Source: Escherichia coli
GTDB lineage: Bacteria > Pseudomonadota > Gammaproteobacteria > Enterobacterales > Enterobacteriaceae
Direction: 5' to 3' (one strand)
Length of the DNA stretch: 64,000 nt
NCBI RefSeq assembly: GCF_016026235.1
Contig: NZ_CP065613.1
Shown: piece by piece, positions 3,447 through 60,412 of the stretch
Layout of the letters: each line of letters opens with the position of its first letter
How positions within the stretch are numbered: position 1 is the stretch's first letter
Made by a program: the position numbers and the translations under genes
Notes under the pieces: model-generated
The model's database searches: none
Told to the model about the DNA's origin: nothing
What the model saw: only the letters and a program-made list of their open reading frames with translations

Positions 3447-4418
3447 ATGAGTAAGATTTTTGAAGATAACTCGCTGACTATCGGTCACACGCCGCTGGTT
3501 CGCCTGAATCGCATCGGTAACGGACGCATTCTGGCGAAGGTGGAATCTCGTAACCCCAGCTTCAGCGTTAAGTGCCGTATCGGTGCCAACATGATTTGGG
3601 ATGCCGAAAAGCGCGGCGTGCTGAAACCAGGCGTTGAACTGGTTGAACCGACCAGCGGTAATACCGGGATTGCACTGGCCTATGTAGCTGCCGCTCGCGG
3701 TTACAAACTCACCCTGACCATGCCAGAAACCATGAGTATTGAACGCCGCAAGCTGCTGAAAGCGTTAGGTGCAAACCTGGTGCTGACGGAAGGTGCTAAA
3801 GGCATGAAAGGCGCAATCCAAAAAGCAGAAGAAATTGTCGCCAGCAATCCAGAGAAATACCTGCTGCTGCAACAATTCAGCAATCCGGCAAACCCTGAAA
3901 TTCACGAAAAAACCACCGGTCCGGAGATCTGGGAAGATACCGACGGTCAGGTTGATGTATTTATTGCTGGCGTTGGGACTGGCGGTACGCTGACTGGCGT
4001 CAGCCGCTACATTAAAGGCACCAAAGGCAAGACCGATCTTATCTCTGTCGCCGTTGAGCCAACCGATTCTCCAGTTATCGCCCAGGCGCTGGCAGGTGAA
4101 GAGATTAAACCTGGCCCGCATAAAATTCAGGGTATTGGCGCTGGTTTTATCCCGGCTAACCTCGATCTCAAGCTGGTCGATAAAGTCATTGGCATCACCA
4201 ATGAAGAAGCCATTTCTACCGCCCGTCGTCTAATGGAAGAAGAAGGTATTCTTGCAGGTATCTCTTCTGGAGCAGCTGTTGCCGCGGCGTTGAAACTACA
4301 AGAAGATGAAAGCTTTACCAACAAGAATATTGTGGTTATTCTACCATCATCGGGTGAGCGTTATTTAAGCACCGCATTGTTTGCCGATCTCTTCACTGAG
4401 AAAGAATTGCAACAGTAA
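3447..4418 (+). CDS. cysK: O-acetylserine sulfhydrylase A (cysteine synthase A)
   Basis: 323-aa [27 protein letters not shown]...; PLP-fold motifs (SVKCRIG, TSGNTG). Confidence 0.96.
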
Positions 4419-4442
4419 TGCCAGCTTGTTAAAAATGCGTAA

Positions 4443-4468
4443 AAAAGCACCTTTTTAGGTGCTTTTTT
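4443..4468 (+). terminator. Rho-independent terminator downstream of cysK
   Basis: Perfect 10-bp stem aaaagcacct / aggtgctttt with tttt loop, followed by T-run. Confidence 0.7.
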
Positions 4469-4559
4469 GTGGCCTGCTTCAAACTTTCGCCCCTCCTGGC
4501 ATTGATTCAGCCTGTCGGAACTGGTATTTAACCAGACTAATTATTTTGATGCGCGAAAT

Positions 4560-5103: not shown

Positions 5104-6831
5104 ATGATTTCAGGCATTTTAGCATCCCCGGGTATCGCTTTCGGTAAAGCTCTGCTTCTGAAAGAAGACGAAATTGTCATTGACCGGAAAAAAATTTCTG
5201 CCGACCAGGTTGATCAGGAAGTTGAACGTTTTCTGAGCGGTCGTGCCAAGGCATCAGCCCAGCTGGAAACGATCAAAACGAAAGCTGGTGAAACGTTCGG
5301 TGAAGAAAAAGAAGCCATCTTTGAAGGGCATATTATGCTGCTCGAAGATGAGGAGCTGGAGCAGGAAATCATAGCCCTGATTAAAGATAAACACATGACA
5401 GCTGACGCAGCTGCTCATGAAGTTATCGAAGGTCAGGCTTCTGCCCTGGAAGAGCTGGATGATGAATACCTGAAAGAACGTGCGGCTGACGTACGTGATA
5501 TCGGTAAGCGCCTGCTGCGCAACATCCTGGGCCTGAAGATTATCGACCTGAGCGCCATTCAGGATGAAGTCATTCTGGTTGCCGCTGACCTGACGCCGTC
5601 CGAAACCGCACAGCTGAACCTGAAGAAGGTGCTGGGTTTCATCACCGACGCGGGTGGCCGTACTTCCCACACCTCTATCATGGCGCGTTCTCTGGAACTG
5701 CCTGCTATCGTGGGTACCGGTAGCGTCACCTCTCAGGTGAAAAATGACGACTATCTGATTCTGGATGCCGTAAATAATCAGGTTTACGTCAATCCAACCA
5801 ACGAAGTTATTGATAAAATGCGCGCTGTTCAGGAGCAAGTGGCTTCTGAAAAAGCAGAGCTTGCTAAACTGAAAGATCTGCCAGCTATTACGCTGGACGG
5901 TCACCAGGTAGAAGTATGCGCTAACATTGGTACGGTTCGTGACGTTGAAGGTGCAGAGCGTAACGGCGCTGAAGGCGTTGGTCTGTATCGTACTGAGTTC
6001 CTGTTCATGGACCGCGACGCGCTGCCCACTGAAGAAGAACAGTTTGCTGCTTACAAAGCAGTGGCTGAAGCGTGTGGCTCGCAGGCGGTTATCGTTCGTA
6101 CCATGGACATCGGCGGCGACAAAGAGCTGCCATACATGAACTTCCCGAAAGAAGAGAACCCGTTCCTCGGCTGGCGCGCTATCCGTATCGCGATGGATCG
6201 TAAAGAGATCCTGCGCGATCAGCTCCGCGCTATCCTGCGTGCCTCGGCTTTCGGTAAATTGCGCATTATGTTCCCGATGATCATCTCTGTTGAAGAAGTG
6301 CGTGCACTGCGCAAAGAGATCGAAATCTACAAACAGGAACTGCGCGACGAAGGTAAAGCGTTTGACGAGTCAATTGAAATCGGCGTAATGGTGGAAACAC
6401 CGGCTGCCGCAACAATTGCACGTCATTTAGCCAAAGAAGTTGATTTCTTTAGTATCGGCACCAATGATTTAACGCAGTACACTCTGGCAGTTGACCGTGG
6501 TAATGATATGATTTCACACCTTTACCAGCCAATGTCACCGTCCGTGCTGAACTTGATCAAGCAAGTTATTGATGCTTCTCATGCTGAAGGCAAATGGACT
6601 GGCATGTGTGGTGAGCTTGCTGGCGATGAACGTGCTACACTTCTGTTGCTGGGGATGGGTCTGGACGAATTCTCTATGAGCGCCATTTCTATCCCGCGCA
6701 TTAAGAAGATTATCCGTAACACGAACTTCGAAGATGCGAAGGTGTTAGCAGAGCAGGCTCTTGCTCAACCGACAACAGACGAGTTAATGACGCTGGTTAA
6801 CAAGTTCATTGAAGAAAAAACAATCTGCTAA
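5104..6831 (+). CDS. ptsI: PTS Enzyme I (phosphoenolpyruvate-protein phosphotransferase)
   Basis: 575-aa [32 protein letters not shown]...; ptsH-ptsI-crr operon order. Confidence 0.97.
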
Positions 6832-6871
6832 TCCACGAGATGCGGCCCAATTTACTGCTTAGGAGAAGATC

Positions 6872-7381
6872 ATGGGTTTGTTCGATAAACTGAAATCTCT
6901 GGTTTCCGACGACAAGAAGGATACCGGAACTATTGAGATCATTGCTCCGCTCTCTGGCGAGATCGTCAATATCGAAGACGTGCCGGATGTCGTTTTTGCG
7001 GAAAAAATCGTTGGTGATGGTATTGCTATCAAACCAACGGGTAACAAAATGGTCGCGCCTGTAGACGGTACCATTGGTAAAATCTTTGAAACCAACCACG
7101 CATTCTCTATCGAATCTGATAGCGGCGTTGAACTGTTCGTCCACTTCGGTATCGACACCGTTGAACTGAAAGGCGAAGGCTTCAAGCGTATTGCTGAAGA
7201 AGGTCAGCGCGTGAAAGTTGGCGATACTGTCATTGAATTTGATCTGCCGCTGCTGGAAGAGAAAGCCAAGTCTACCCTGACTCCGGTTGTTATCTCCAAC
7301 ATGGACGAAATCAAAGAACTGATCAAACTGTCCGGTAGCGTAACCGTGGGTGAAACCCCGGTTATCCGCATCAAGAAGTAA
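6872..7381 (+). CDS. crr: PTS glucose-specific EIIA component (EIIA-Glc)
   Basis: 169-aa [35 protein letters not shown]... Confidence 0.97.
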
Positions 7382-7403
7382 TTCTTGCCGCAGTGAAAAA
7401 TGG

Positions 7404-7415
7404 CGCCCATCGGCG
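7404..7415. repeat. IS4 target-site duplication, left copy (cgcccatcggcg)
   Basis: 12-bp sequence identical to 8842..8853, directly abutting the IS4 terminal inverted repeats. Confidence 0.85.
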
Positions 7416-8841
7416 TAATGCCAGTCAGTTAAGCAACTGACTGGCTCTTTTTCGGGGCTGTGGGGTATTTCCAGGGCCTCTCCTTTACCACTCTCGGGAA
7501 GGCCCTTCCCCTTCTCGTCGGTAATTTCACAAGTTGTCCCATACTTGCAAGATCGCGCATCAGCTCCGGTATACGTCCCGGTGAAGCGCCCTGCAATGTC
7601 ATCAGCATTCTCATCACCATTCCGCATGATTCTGAGAAACTCAGTTGATTCGGCCAGTAACCTTTCAGATGTTCCGCCATTTTAATCATCTGATATCTCA
7701 CCAGATTATAAGCCAGTAAGACACCCCACAGCTCTTGCTCCACAAGCTCCGGCTTTTTACTTCTCAGCGTCAGCCTGCTCAGTTGCATCGTCTGTTTTAT
7801 CTCCCTGTATCCCAGTTCGATTTCCCAGCGATGACTGTACAGATCCGCCATTTCTCCTCTGGGGAAGCGCATGGCGTCCGTCATCGACGTCAGCAGATGG
7901 CAGACTTTTCCTTTGCGCGTCACGGTCAGCAGGCGGGCTGTCACTTCATTTCCCAGTCCCGGCCACTTTTTTCGTGCCTGCGGGCTGGTTTTCAGCTTCA
8001 CCAGATGATCGCCTTTACCCAGTTTTCTGAGCTCTTCATATTGCGCTCCCTTTCTGAGAGGTATCATCCAGTGGCGGTGTTCTCCCGCCAGGCTCCAGGC
8101 ATTTAACAGTCCCAGTGAGTAATAACCTTTATCCATTAACGTCAGAGTGTTATCGCCGGTTTGTTCTATAAGTTGCTCAGCAAGCTCATTTTCGCTGTTC
8201 TTCATCGTGCCGAAGGCTGCAGCCGTCAGCAGATGGCTGGTCAGTTCCATCTGGCAGACCATTTTGACCTGCGGGTAGAGCGCCGGGTTCCCGGCATGTG
8301 TCTGGCGGGGGAAGGCTGCATCGTTCTCTGGTGTATCCGGTGTGCGCCAGAACACACCATCGATGGCCAACAGGGTCAGGCCGCACCAGTGCGGATGCGG
8401 CGTGGCGTTATGCCAGAGCTGCGCTGTTTTCGTGAACACGCGGCGGACAGCCTCACTTCCCAGGCGCTGGCGGGCCTGAATAACGGCACTGGGGGCAACG
8501 AAGGGGCGATTGCCCGGCAGCATGATGTCCAGGCGATTCACAATCTGGTGAAGAGGTTCTTTACGCTCAAGCGCCATGCCAACAATACACCAGACCATCA
8601 TTTCGAGGGGAAGACGGCGCTTGCGTAGCGTTACAGTACCTGATTCGGCAAGGCAACGAGAGATGAGTTCGGGGTCGAGGTAATCCCCCAGAGAAGTCAG
8701 TGGGTTACGCAGAGAATCGTAACGGGATACCAGATCAAGAGCCTGTCCAATGTGCATAAAAAAATCCGGAAACAAGTGAGCGTTTCCGGATTCTTACACA
8801 GCCACTGGATCGGTCAACTGATCCTTAACTGATCGGCATTA
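7416..8841 (-). mobile_element. Insertion sequence IS4 (1426 bp)
   Basis: Element length 1426 bp; 18-bp imperfect terminal IRs taatgccagtcagttaag (7416-7433) and cttaactgatcggcatta (8824-8841); 12-bp flanking direct repeat; encodes 442-aa transposase. Confidence 0.93.
7429..8757 (-). CDS. insG: IS4 transposase InsG
   Basis: ORF 7429..8775; start taken at [26 protein letters not shown]... (442 aa), recognised as IS4 transposase. Confidence 0.92.
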
Positions 8842-8853
8842 CGCCCATCGGCG
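8842..8853. repeat. IS4 target-site duplication, right copy (cgcccatcggcg)
   Basis: Identical to 7404..7415; with the IS removed the flanks rejoin as aaaaatggcgcccatcggcgccattttttt, a palindromic bidirectional terminator. Confidence 0.85.
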
Positions 8854-8861
8854 CCATTTTT

Positions 8862-9713
8862 TTATGCTTCCGCCAGCGGCGGCAAAATCAATTCATCGCT
8901 CTCATGCTGCTGGGTGTAGCGCATCACTTCCAGTACGCGCAACCCCGCGCGGTGCACCGCATCGGTTAACGCCTTCCCTTTCAGCAAGCCACTGATGAGC
9001 TGAGCACAAAACTGGTCGCCAGTCCCTTTCAGGTCGGTTTTTACCCGTGAATGGGAAATGACATTCACGCTGTCGGCAGTGACCACCACAACCTGCATCT
9101 CCTGATTTTCTTCATTACCGGAGGCGCTGGTAATCACCACCCATTTTAGTGTGTCTGAAAGCAGACTTTTTGCGGCAGCAATGGCACTGTCGAGATCGCG
9201 GCAATTTTTACCGGTCAGGATTTCCAGCTCAAAGATATTGGGGGTAATTCCCTGCGCCAGCGGCAGTAAATATTGTCGATACGCCTCGGGAAGGTCAGGT
9301 TTGACATAAATTCCGCTATCAATATCGCCAATCACCGGATCGACCATGATCAATAGATCAGGATGGTCTTTGCGTAGCGCAGTCAGCCACTCGGCAAGGA
9401 TTTTGATTTGCGATGCCGTTCCCATATAGCCCGTGGTTACAGCACGAAGTTGGCGCAGCGCATCACGCTCCTGAAGCGCACGCAAATAGCCGCTAAACCA
9501 TTCGTCCGGAATCGCACCACCGTAGAAAGTGTCATAATGCGGCGTATTGCTCAGCAATACCGTCGGCACGGCAAAGACATTCAGGCCGTTCTGTTTGATA
9601 GCAGGCACGGCAATGCTGTTGCCTACGCTGCCGTACACTACCTGCGACTGCACGGCGACGATATCCGCCTGCAGTGCCCTGCTCTTATCGTTAAACAACA
9701 ACAAACTACTCAT
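8862..9713 (-). CDS. pdxK: Pyridoxal/pyridoxine/pyridoxamine kinase
   Basis: 283-aa [39 protein letters not shown]... Confidence 0.94.
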
Positions 9714-9751
9714 TTAATTTTTTCTCCTTGCCGATGATCCTCATCGTATTA

Positions 9752-10186
<435 letters not shown>

Positions 10187-54949: not shown

Positions 54950-57900
54950 ATGGCGAATTTCTTTATTGATCGCCCCATTTTTGCCTGGGTGCTGGCAATC
55001 CTGTTGTGTCTGACAGGTACCCTGGCGATTTTTTCATTGCCCGTTGAACAATACCCCGATCTCGCGCCACCGAATGTGCGAGTGACCGCTAACTATCCCG
55101 GCGCATCGGCCCAGACGCTGGAAAACACCGTGACCCAGGTTATCGAGCAAAATATGACCGGCCTCGATAATCTCATGTATATGTCATCTCAGAGCAGTGG
55201 CACCGGTCAGGCATCTGTCACTTTAAGTTTTAAAGCAGGCACCGATCCGGACGAAGCCGTGCAGCAAGTACAAAACCAGCTGCAATCAGCCATGCGAAAG
55301 TTACCGCAGGCGGTGCAAAATCAGGGCGTGACGGTGCGTAAAACCGGCGATACCAATATTCTGACCATTGCTTTCGTCTCTACCGATGGTTCGATGGATA
55401 AACAGGATATTGCCGATTATGTTGCCAGTAATATTCAGGACCCGTTAAGCCGCGTGAATGGCGTCGGGGATATCGATGCCTATGGTTCGCAATATTCCAT
55501 GCGTATCTGGCTGGACCCGGCGAAACTCAACAGTTTCCAGATGACGGCTAAAGATGTCACTGATGCCATTGAGTCACAGAACGCGCAGATTGCGGTTGGG
55601 CAACTTGGGGGTACACCTTCCGTCGATAAGCAGGCGCTCAACGCCACCATTAACGCCCAGTCACTGCTGCAAACACCAGAACAGTTCCGCGATATCACCT
55701 TGCGGGTGAATCAGGATGGCTCAGAGGTAAGGCTGGGCGATGTCGCCACCGTCGAAATGGGGGCGGAGAAATACGATTATCTTAGCCGCTTCAATGGTAA
55801 GCCAGCCTCCGGGTTGGGGGTAAAACTGGCCTCCGGCGCAAACGAAATGGCGACAGCGGAGCTGGTGCTCAATCGTCTCGACGAGCTGGCGCAGTACTTC
55901 CCGCACGGACTGGAATACAAGGTGGCGTATGAAACCACCTCGTTTGTTAAAGCCTCCATTGAAGACGTGGTGAAAACGCTGCTGGAAGTTATCGCCCTGG
56001 TTTTCCTCGTTATGTATCTGTTCCTGCAAAACTTCCGCGCCACGCTGATACCCACTATCGCCGTGCCGGTGGTGTTGATGGGAACCTTCTCCGTACTTTA
56101 CGCCTTCGGTTACAGCGTCAACACCTTAACCATGTTTGCGATGGTACTGGCGATCGGTCTGCTGGTGGATGACGCCATCGTGGTGGTGGAAAACGTCGAA
56201 CGTATTATGAGTGAGGAAGGACTCACTCCTCGCGAAGCCACACGTAAATCGATGGGGCAGATCCAGGGGGCACTGGTCGGGATTGCGATGGTGCTTTCGG
56301 CGGTATTTGTACCAATGGCCTTCTTCGGCGGCACCACCGGTGCCATCTATCGCCAGTTCTCTATTACCATTGTTGCGGCGATGGTGCTGTCAGTACTGGT
56401 AGCGATGATCCTCACTCCGGCTCTGTGTGCCACGCTACTTAAGCCACTGAAAAAAGGTGAGCATCACGGGCAAAAAGGCTTTTTTGCCTGGTTTAACCAG
56501 ATGTTTAACCGCAACGCCGAACGCTACGAAAAAGGGGTGGCGAAAATTCTCCACCGTAGCCTGCGCTGGATTGTGATTTATGTCCTGCTGCTTGGCGGCA
56601 TGGTGTTCCTGTTCCTGCGTTTGCCGACGTCGTTCTTACCGCTGGAAGACCGTGGCATGTTTACTACCTCGGTACAATTGCCCAGCGGTTCAACCCAACA
56701 ACAGACCCTGAAAGTCGTTGAGCAAATCGAGAAATATTACTTCACCCATGAAAAAGACAACATCATGTCGGTGTTTGCCACTGTTGGTTCTGGCCCCGGG
56801 GGTAACGGGCAAAACGTGGCGCGAATGTTTATCCGCCTGAAAGACTGGAGCGAACGCGACAGTAAGACCGGCACCTCATTTGCCATTATCGAGCGTGCAA
56901 CGAAGGCGTTTAACAAGATTAAAGAAGCTCGCGTTATCGCCAGCAGCCCGCCAGCAATTAGCGGTCTTGGTAGTTCTGCGGGTTTTGATATGGAGTTGCA
57001 GGACCACGCTGGAGCAGGTCACGATGCGCTGATGGCAGCACGTAACCAGTTGCTGGCGCTGGCGGCGGAAAACCCGGAGCTAACCCGTGTGCGCCATAAC
57101 GGCCTCGACGACAGTCCGCAGTTGCAGATTGATATCGACCAGCGTAAAGCTCAGGCGCTGGGCGTTGCTATCGACGATATTAACGACACACTGCAAACCG
57201 CCTGGGGTTCGAGCTATGTGAATGACTTTATGGATCGCGGTCGCGTGAAGAAAGTCTATGTGCAGGCAGCTGCGCCGTATCGCATGCTGCCAGATGACAT
57301 CAATCTCTGGTATGTCCGAAATAAAGATGGCGGCATGGTGCCCTTCTCTGCTTTCGCGACCTCACGCTGGGAAACAGGCTCGCCGCGTCTGGAACGCTAT
57401 AACGGTTATTCTGCGGTTGAGATTGTTGGGGAAGCCGCACCGGGGGTCAGTACCGGTACGGCGATGGATATTATGGAATCGTTAGTGAAGCAGTTGCCAA
57501 ACGGCTTTGGTCTGGAGTGGACGGCGATGTCGTATCAGGAGCGACTTTCCGGCGCGCAGGCTCCGGCGCTGTACGCCATTTCCTTGCTGGTGGTATTCCT
57601 GTGTCTGGCGGCGTTGTATGAAAGCTGGTCGGTGCCGTTCTCGGTAATGCTGGTCGTGCCGCTGGGGGTTATCGGCGCGCTGCTGGCAACCTGGATGCGC
57701 GGGCTGGAAAACGACGTTTACTTCCAGGTGGGCCTGTTAACGGTCATTGGTTTATCGGCGAAAAACGCCATCCTGATCGTCGAGTTTGCTAACGAGATGA
57801 ACCAAAAAGGCCACGACCTGTTTGAAGCGACGCTCCACGCCTGCCGTCAGCGTTTACGCCCGATTCTGATGACCTCGCTGGCATTTATCTTCGGCGTATT

Positions 57901-58063
57901 GCCAATGGCAACCAGCACGGGTGCCGGTTCCGGTGGTCAGCATGCGGTGGGTACTGGCGTAATGGGCGGGATGATTTCGGCCACTATTCTGGCTATTTAC
58001 TTCGTGCCGCTGTTCTTTGTACTGGTGCGCCGCCGCTTCCCGCTGAAGCCGCGCCCGGAATAA
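54950..58063 (+). CDS. acrD: RND aminoglycoside efflux pump AcrD
   Basis: 1037-aa [58 protein letters not shown]... Confidence 0.96.
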
Positions 58064-58070
58064 GCAATAA

Positions 58071-58101
58071 AAAAGGCGACATGCTAATGTGTCGCCTTTT
58101 T
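58071..58101 (+). terminator. Rho-independent terminator of acrD
   Basis: Perfect 11-bp stem aaaaggcgaca / tgtcgcctttt with 8-nt loop, followed by T-run, 8 nt past the acrD stop. Confidence 0.75.
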
Positions 58102-58161
58102 CAACTTTCCGATTAAGAACCTGCTCAGCGGGTTCTTGCTGTTTGTACTTTGTCTCAGGAA

Positions 58162-58961: not shown

Positions 58962-60089
58962 ATGTCGTGCCCGGTTATTGAGCTGACACAACAGCTTATT
59001 CGCCGCCCTTCCCTGAGTCCTGATGACGCAGGATGCCAGGCTTTGTTGATTGAACGTTTGCAGGCGATCGGTTTTACCGTTGAACGCATGGATTTTGCCG
59101 ATACGCAGAATTTTTGGGCATGGCGTGGGCAAGGTGAAACGTTGGCCTTTGCCGGGCATACCGACGTGGTGCCGCCTGGCGACGCCGACCGTTGGATCAA
59201 TCCGCCGTTTGAACCGACCATTCGTGATGGCATGTTATTCGGGCGCGGTGCGGCAGATATGAAAGGCTCGCTGGCGGCGATGGTGGTAGCGGCAGAACGC
59301 TTTGTCGCACAACATCCCAACCATACGGGGCGACTGGCATTTCTGATCACCTCTGATGAAGAAGCCAGTGCACACAACGGTACGGTAAAAGTCGTCGAAG
59401 CGTTAATGGCACGTAATGAGCGTCTCGATTACTGCCTGGTCGGCGAACCGTCGAGTATCGAAGTGGTAGGTGATGTGGTGAAAAATGGTCGTCGCGGATC
59501 GTTAACCTGCAACCTCACCATTCATGGCGTTCAGGGGCATGTTGCCTACCCGCATCTGGCTGACAATCCGGTACATCGCGCAGCACCTTTCCTTAATGAA
59601 TTAGTGGCTATTGAGTGGGATCAGGGCAATGAATTTTTCCCGGCGACCAGTATGCAGATTGCTAATATTCAGGCGGGAACGGGCAGTAACAATGTTATTC
59701 CGGGTGAACTGTTTGTGCAGTTTAACTTCCGCTTCAGCACCGAACTGACTGATGAGATGATCAAAGCGCAGGTGCTTGCCCTGCTTGAAAAACATCAACT
59801 GCGCTATACGGTGGATTGGTGGCTTTCCGGGCAGCCATTTTTGACCGCGCGCGGTAAACTGGTGGATGCGGTCGTTAACGCGGTTGAGCACTATAATGAA
59901 ATTAAACCGCAGCTACTGGCCACAGGCGGAACGTCCGACGGGCGCTTTATTGCTCGCATGGGGGCGCAGGTGGTGGAACTCGGGCCGGTCAATGCCACTA
60001 TTCATAAAATTAATGAATGTGTGAACGCTGCCGACCTGCAGCTACTTGCCCGTATGTATCAACGTATCATGGAACAGCTCGTCGCGTGA
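58962..60089 (+). CDS. dapE: Succinyl-diaminopimelate desuccinylase
   Basis: 375-aa [59 protein letters not shown]... Confidence 0.96.
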
Positions 60090-60332: not shown

Positions 60333-60412
60333 GTAGGCCGGATAAGGCGTTAACGCCGCATCCGGCAATGGTGAACGATGCCTGATGCGACGCTCACGCG
60401 TCTTATCAGGCC
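60333..60412. repeat. BIME: two REP palindromic units between ypfN and ypfH
   Basis: gtaggccggataaggcgttaacgccgcatccggca and gatgcctgatgcgacgctcacgcgtcttatcaggcc. Confidence 0.75.

Follow-up and report, generated by a model that had tools for sequence, protein, structure and literature searches.

An intact IS4 in the crr/pdxK hairpin of an Escherichia coli genome, a probable target-directed insertion at a recurrent site

What becomes of two convergent genes when an insertion sequence lands in the hairpin between them, and is such a landing exceptional? Both questions are raised by an IS4 found between crr and pdxK in Escherichia coli, in a stretch of 64,000 nucleotides from contig NZ_CP065613.1 (assembly GCF_016026235.1), referred to here as the window. 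The product of crr, EIIA-Glc, is a central regulator of carbon catabolite repression. The best explanation, to which we give a probability of about 0.88, is a target-directed IS4 insertion at a crr/pdxK hairpin hotspot, with probable replacement terminators at the ends of the element. The genes and the element are arranged as follows.

6872 to 7381, plus strand: crr (EIIA-Glc), intact ORF of 169 aa (Pfam PTS_EIIA_1, E 2e-49; annotated as crr in matching genomes)
7416 to 8841, minus strand: IS4 (99.4% identity to the annotated K-12 IS4; best E. coli matches 99.9%)
7416 to 7433, no strand: IRR, the inverted repeat at the 3' end of the transposase gene, TAATGCCAGTCAGTTAAG (16/18 against the other end)
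7429 to 8757, minus strand: IS4 transposase CDS, 442 aa from the ATG at 8757 (Pfam Nterm_IS4 and DDE_Tnp_1; YREK motif)
8824 to 8841, no strand: IRL, the inverted repeat at the 5' end of the transposase gene, reverse complement TAATGCCGATCAGTTAAG (comparison of the two ends)
8862 to 9713, minus strand: pdxK (pyridoxal kinase), intact ORF of 283 aa (Pfam Phos_pyr_kin; same length as K-12 pdxK)

Transcription of crr heads toward the element, pdxK is convergent with it, and neither coding sequence was damaged by the insertion. The transposase gene lies on the minus strand, like pdxK. A further ORF of 273 aa (6806-7627, minus strand) runs antisense to crr, extends across the junction with IS4 and can almost certainly be dismissed as spurious.

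The original prediction described a full-length IS4 of 1426 bp with 18-bp inverted repeats and a 12-bp flanking direct repeat, and all of this holds. The element covers 1426 bp, the terminal repeats TAATGCCAGTCAGTTAAG and TAATGCCGATCAGTTAAG agree at 16 of 18 positions, and a perfect 12-bp direct repeat, CGCCCATCGGCG, brackets the element at 7404-7415 and 8842-8853. Its sole long ORF is on the minus strand (7429-8775, 448 aa from a TTG at 8775), with matches to Nterm_IS4 (E 3e-33) and DDE_Tnp_1 (E 4e-32) and the Y(2)R(3)E(6)K motif of the IS4 family at transposase aa 307. We took as marks of IS4 a length of about 1.4 kb, inverted repeats of about 18 bp starting with -AATR-, a duplication of 10-13 bp and a single DDE transposase ORF; the element agrees in size, ends (TAATGCC...), duplication length, transposase domains and motif, and is nearly identical to the reference. 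The end signature of the IS4 subgroup is given as -AATR--------WTW (PMC2266710, Table 1).

As for identity, the element differs from the MG1655 feature "insertion sequence:IS4" at 8 of 1426 nucleotides and at 5 amino acids. That copy sits at 4,502,090-4,503,515, between yjgZ and nanX, so the original prediction was right to place the K-12 copy elsewhere. Compared with 11 other IS4 copies at crr/pdxK and the K-12 copy, the window allele has 5 private positions (IS coordinates 93, 101, 445, 616 and 955). No record of the exact 442-aa transposase was found. The nearest copies (99.9%) are on chromosomes and large plasmids of strains such as CFSAN029787, an enteroinvasive E. coli, which hints that the window may belong to a Shigella/EIEC-like lineage. 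Several such copies per record, as in CFSAN029787, suggest an active allele, and in the window its ORF and both ends are intact.

The site before insertion can be rebuilt by removing IS4 and one copy of the repeat, which gives AAAAATGGCGCCCATCGGCGCCATTTTTTT, in the context ...GTGAAAAATGGCGCCCATCGGCGCCATTTTTTTATGC.... The joined flanks differ from K-12 by 2 SNPs in 222 bp, both within pdxK. The K-12 alignment that had been proposed as a check leaves the 42-bp crr-pdxK intergenic sequence identical to MG1655, base for base. Lying between the stop codons of the two genes, this sequence forms the hairpin A5-TGGCGCC-CATC-GGCGCCA-T7, whose T7 run overlaps the pdxK stop codon (8862-8864). Its fold energy is -24.8 kcal/mol on the plus strand (z = -4.5) and -23.4 on the minus strand (z = -3.8), and no shuffled sequence matched it. 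The two halves are now found at either side of the element.

7396 to 7415, no strand: left half of the former terminator, with the A5 run, the 5' stem arm and the left duplication copy at 7404-7415 (identical to K-12 up to the junction)
8842 to 8863, no strand: right half of the former terminator, with the right duplication copy at 8842-8853, the 3' stem arm and T7 (K-12 comparison)

A GC-rich stem-loop, an A run, a T run and convergent genes are all present, as in a bidirectional intrinsic (Rho-independent) terminator, and the native hairpin is predicted to be the bidirectional terminator of crr and pdxK. A literature search on a pdxK/crr terminator returned nothing. The fold and the K-12 identity agree with the earlier claim that the joined flanks restore an A-run/T-run hairpin common to both genes. 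The same prediction had placed the insertion in the loop of the hairpin, and here it was only partly right. The 12-bp duplication and the hairpin dyad share one centre, which means that the staggered cuts enclose the loop and, in each arm, the inner 4 bp. The 4-nt loop is thus included, but the duplication also takes 4 bp from both stem arms.

What does the split do to transcription? The insertion leaves residual hairpins of 5 bp, with energies of -7.7 and -9.0 kcal/mol, each followed by UAAUGCC and by no U tract. Judging from these folds, the predicted native terminator would be inactivated on both strands. The ends of IS4, on the other hand, carry hairpins of their own.

7420 to 7453, plus strand: inward terminator-like element at the IRR end, in the path of the crr transcript (terminator scan; -18.7 kcal/mol; MFE fold of the junction RNA)
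8758 to 8795, minus strand: hairpin AAGAAUCCGGAAAC / GUUUCCGGAUU followed by a U run (U7), in the path of the pdxK transcript (inverted repeat; z = -7.5; -18.4 kcal/mol)
8790 to 8817, minus strand: sigma-70-like promoter match, TTGACC, 16 nt, AAGAAT, preceded by TGn (the only match in 6800-9800)

The hairpin at the IRR end has an 11-bp stem (GCCAGTCAGTT/AACTGACTGGC), the loop AAGC and the tail TCTTTTTC. Written as RNA, it reads GCCAGUCAGUU-AAGC-AACUGACUGGC, then UCUUUUUC; it lies 5-38 nt inside the crr-proximal end, and the stop codon of the transposase gene falls within its loop. The minus-strand hairpin lies 47-84 nt inside the pdxK-proximal end, and its U run abuts the transposase AUG. It received no call from the simple terminator scan, because maximal stem extension consumes its Ts. 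Both energies (-18.7 and -18.4) are comparable to those of the native hairpin cores (-17.7 and -19.2 kcal/mol). With hairpins and U tracts of this strength, the crr and pdxK transcripts would be terminated further downstream. Their 3' ends therefore probably move outward by about 40 and 105 nt, respectively, and do not run through IS4. The effect of the insertion on the neighbouring genes is probably small.

The same hairpins may also protect the transposase gene against transcription that enters from outside. With a score of 9/12 the promoter match is a modest one, and from its position the transcript of the transposase gene would be predicted to start near 8783, where the 5' arm of the minus-strand hairpin ends. 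If this internal promoter is real, the transcript made by IS4 itself would start inside the upstream hairpin and so escape it, which is speculative. The scan for outward-facing or hybrid promoters at the IS4 ends found none.

The other possible outcome is that the split terminator causes substantial crr read-through, antisense to the transposase gene, and pdxK read-through that drives the transposase, with altered expression of crr, pdxK or IS4. The split of the native hairpin and U tract, the weak residual hairpins and the common orientation of pdxK and the transposase gene all point in this direction. Strong hairpins with U tracts stand just inside both ends, however, at energies that match the native terminator cores, and 54 genomes keep the insertion, in one orientation or the other; in all 11 comparison loci, crr and pdxK are annotated as intact. 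This persistence with intact genes suggests that the insertion carries little cost, and we consider substantial read-through unlikely. The original prediction of crr read-through into IS4 and altered pdxK 3'-end formation is thus retained in part: the 3' ends would have to shift, but long crr read-through is unlikely with these end structures in its path.

We then have to ask why IS4 is found at this position. To describe its targets, a further 30 IS4 copies with flanks were collected through three common transposase alleles and the empty sites were rebuilt. Leaving out one locus with Ns in its flanks (L036), the survey amounts to 29 unique sites including the window; it is a small set from few genomes, and repeat insertions at the same terminators are included. 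Duplication lengths range from 11 to 14 bp. Relative to the centre of the duplication, all 29 sites have A at -12 and 27 have it at -11, while T is found at +11, +12 and +13 in 27/29, 28/29 and 25/29. AAA (within -16..-8) and TTT (within +8..+16) occur together at 26 of the 29 sites; among 62,502 background positions of the window, 1.2% show this combination. The window site fits this pattern, with A over -14..-10 and T over +10..+16.

Strong hairpins (-17 to -25 kcal/mol) were found at approximately 20 of the 29 sites, many of them between convergent genes, and there it is the apex of the hairpin that is duplicated. The targeted terminators, with genes assigned through Pfam, include adhE/tdk, eno/ygcG, rpoD/mug, degS/mdh, raiA/bamD and ssb/yjcB, and several were struck more than once and in both orientations. 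The recurrent hotspots between convergent genes comprise L027, L035 and L037/L040 (eno/ygcG), L024 and L043 (adhE/tdk), L026 and L041 (raiA/bamD), and L038 and L039; at such terminators, the duplication length varies by 1-2 bp at one and the same hairpin.

The abundance of hairpins, with the apex duplicated, would also be expected if IS4 recognised the extruded hairpin or cruciform of a terminator instead of its A/T-tract sequence. We regard this as improbable. The targets that form no hairpin (the K-12 yjgZ/nanX site L004, and L005, L009, L030, L031 and L042) keep the tracts at the same spacing, with L031 having the T tract only, which argues that IS4 recognises the tracts and not an extruded hairpin. 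Moreover, the sites agree almost without exception in having A at -12 and -11 and T at +11 and +12, but they do not agree in the complementarity of the stem: in a fixed register, at least 7 of 8 complementary positions are seen in only 12 of the 29 sites.

The preference for spaced A and T tracts is not new. IS4 was reportedly found by Mayaux et al. in 1984 in the pheST attenuator, with the target consensus AAA-N20-TTT, and for IS231A the target described by Hallet et al. in 1994 is said to be GGG-N5-CCC with flanking A/T tracts. The window site and 26 of the 29 surveyed sites are like this IS4 consensus, and we see no difference. The target arms are strongly conserved in the IS4 subgroup (De Palmenaer 2008). 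The preference being already documented, the insertion is an ordinary instance of known behaviour.

Two unoccupied sequences with the IS4 pattern were also seen in the window, both made of an A run, a hairpin and a T run. One is at about 4432-4476 (centre 4454), downstream of an ORF (3447-4418) that synteny with L003 identifies as cysK, and the other at about 58063-58107 (centre 58085), downstream of a 1037-aa ORF at 54950-58063.

Is the window insertion peculiar to its strain, as first supposed? The survey of other genomes proposed at the outset found IS4 at crr/pdxK in 54 of 5426 complete E. coli genomes (1.0%), 15 in the orientation of the window, where both junctions were found, and 39 in the opposite one, detected with a synthetic opposite-orientation query, all as raw genome counts without correction for clonal relatedness. 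Some are already annotated in public genomes, e.g. SMS-3-5 and VR50. None of the complete E. coli genomes matches both window junctions at 100%, and the junction AAAAATGGCGCCCATCGGCGTAATGCC gave 0 matches in a scan of GTDB species-representative genomes. The site is empty in K-12 and in FDAARGOS_943, the closest complete genome over window positions 9000-30000 (100.0%). Since this relative has an empty site, the window insertion is lineage-specific, though the site is a general hotspot. Strain specificity therefore stands to this extent, but the insertion is no oddity, given its repeated independent occurrence in both orientations.

In FDAARGOS_943 (L003, NZ_CP065615.1 5168000-5184000), a cluster of IS66-family, ISSso6 (IS110-like) and ISEc60 (IS4-like) elements truncates pdxK. 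The small crr/pdxK region has been struck by different IS elements in sister lineages.

We compared the window with 11 other occupied loci. All 12 share one nucleotide position and one 12-bp duplication, 7 with the orientation of the window and 5 with the opposite one. At least 6 IS4 alleles are present, and as many as 84 SNPs over 3.55 kb separate the flank haplotypes, the window flanks differing from every other compared locus by at least 26 SNPs. The loci of VR50, SMS-3-5 and AR_0013 have the insertion point, the 12-bp duplication and the intact crr and pdxK of the window; the differences between the window and other strains lie in the IS4 alleles, the flank haplotypes and the orientation, which is opposite in 39 of the 54. 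The same position and duplication with different alleles and flank haplotypes indicate, as far as these sequences go, that crr/pdxK is a recurrent hotspot.

Two pairs of genomes, HH35 with SCPM-O-B-12142 (L016/L021) and VR50 with M15 (L002/L020), have flanks that differ by 0-1 SNP in 3.55 kb and the same allele in opposite orientation. Together with the junctions, which form a 38-nt inverted repeat of 89% identity, they could be taken as signs of a single ancestral insertion, spread by descent or recombination and turned around by in-situ inversion between these repeats. This is very improbable: there are at least 6 alleles on distant flank haplotypes, one clade with a single orientation is contradicted by the 54 genomes, the empty FDAARGOS_943 site places the window lineage as occupied among empty ones, and eno/ygcG, adhE/tdk and raiA/bamD were struck repeatedly with duplications differing by 1-2 bp, a difference that only independent events produce. 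In-situ inversion as the source of the opposite orientations was rejected, since no chimeric inverted repeats are seen, which would confine any crossover to the outermost 7 nt of the repeats, and since in 12/12 loci the CATC loop has its native orientation in both copies of the duplication, so independent insertion is more parsimonious. For the pairs with the same flanks, the sequences favour two separate insertions by the resident allele.

Target-directed insertion at a recurrent site can thus be laid out as a series of steps. An intact, ordinary IS4 entered the hairpin that separates the convergent genes crr and pdxK, a target of its preferred type. IS4 chooses targets with A and T tracts approximately 11-14 bp from the centre of the staggered cut (AAA-N20-TTT) and duplicates the central 11-14 bp. 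Bidirectional intrinsic terminators match this shape, that of crr/pdxK being a near-perfect example, hence a recurrent hotspot at the same nucleotide, in either orientation and in many E. coli lineages. The window copy is one such independent event, the nearest complete relative keeping the empty site.

A wider proposal may follow from this, which we put forward tentatively, as rather less probable than its opposite: a "terminator-swap", in which IS4 homes to bidirectional terminators through their A/T tracts, destroys them and supplies inward terminators of its own. A limited literature search found no explicit published test of terminator replacement. If the proposal is true, the insertion would be near-neutral for the convergent genes on either side and would itself be insulated from these genes, and this would explain the polymorphic IS4 hotspots at crr/pdxK, eno/ygcG, adhE/tdk, raiA/bamD and others. 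If the part on replacement terminators is wrong, crr could acquire, in occupied strains, a 3' UTR that is longer or less stable.

In practical terms, an IS4 that splits an A-run/T-run hairpin between convergent genes should be expected in genome scans, and not be read as an anomaly. With 1% occupancy and both orientations, crr/pdxK is usable as a polymorphic marker. The locus matters little for biology at large, and serves as a clean worked example of how the choice of target site renders an IS insertion benign.

Elsewhere in the window, matches to Rfam naRNA4 (CssrE) above the gathering score were found at 60336-60412 (both strands) and 32588-32669 (minus strand), presumably REP-type palindromic repeats. 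An ORF at 58962-60089 (375 aa), suspected to be an IS110-type transposase beside a REP element, is actually an M20 peptidase.

Lastly, we compare the insertion with known systems. The closest is the K-12 IS4 (insG, b4278), the type element of the IS4 family and subgroup, which has the same 1426 bp, inverted repeats agreeing at 16/18 positions and a 12-bp duplication. Both copies have a single DDE transposase ORF with Nterm_IS4, DDE_Tnp_1 and YREK, and they differ in their site, yjgZ/nanX in K-12 and crr/pdxK in the window.

In IS10 and IS50, the transposase genes are protected from outside transcription. IS4 is similar in having a hairpin upstream of the transposase start that is complete only in transcripts entering from outside. 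Unlike in IS10 and IS50, the predicted IS4 hairpin resembles an intrinsic terminator (U7) and would not be just a structure masking the RBS.

As for other elements with a taste for intergenic palindromes, group IIC introns insert after terminators, and Tn7 uses the glmS terminator as its site. IS1397, IS621 and ISRm22 insert in REP sequences (PMC1525189). IS4 shares with all of these an insertion at intergenic palindromes that avoids gene disruption. IS4 differs as a DDE element that moves by cut-and-paste and makes use of symmetric A/T tracts, and it duplicates the hairpin apex instead of inserting beside it.
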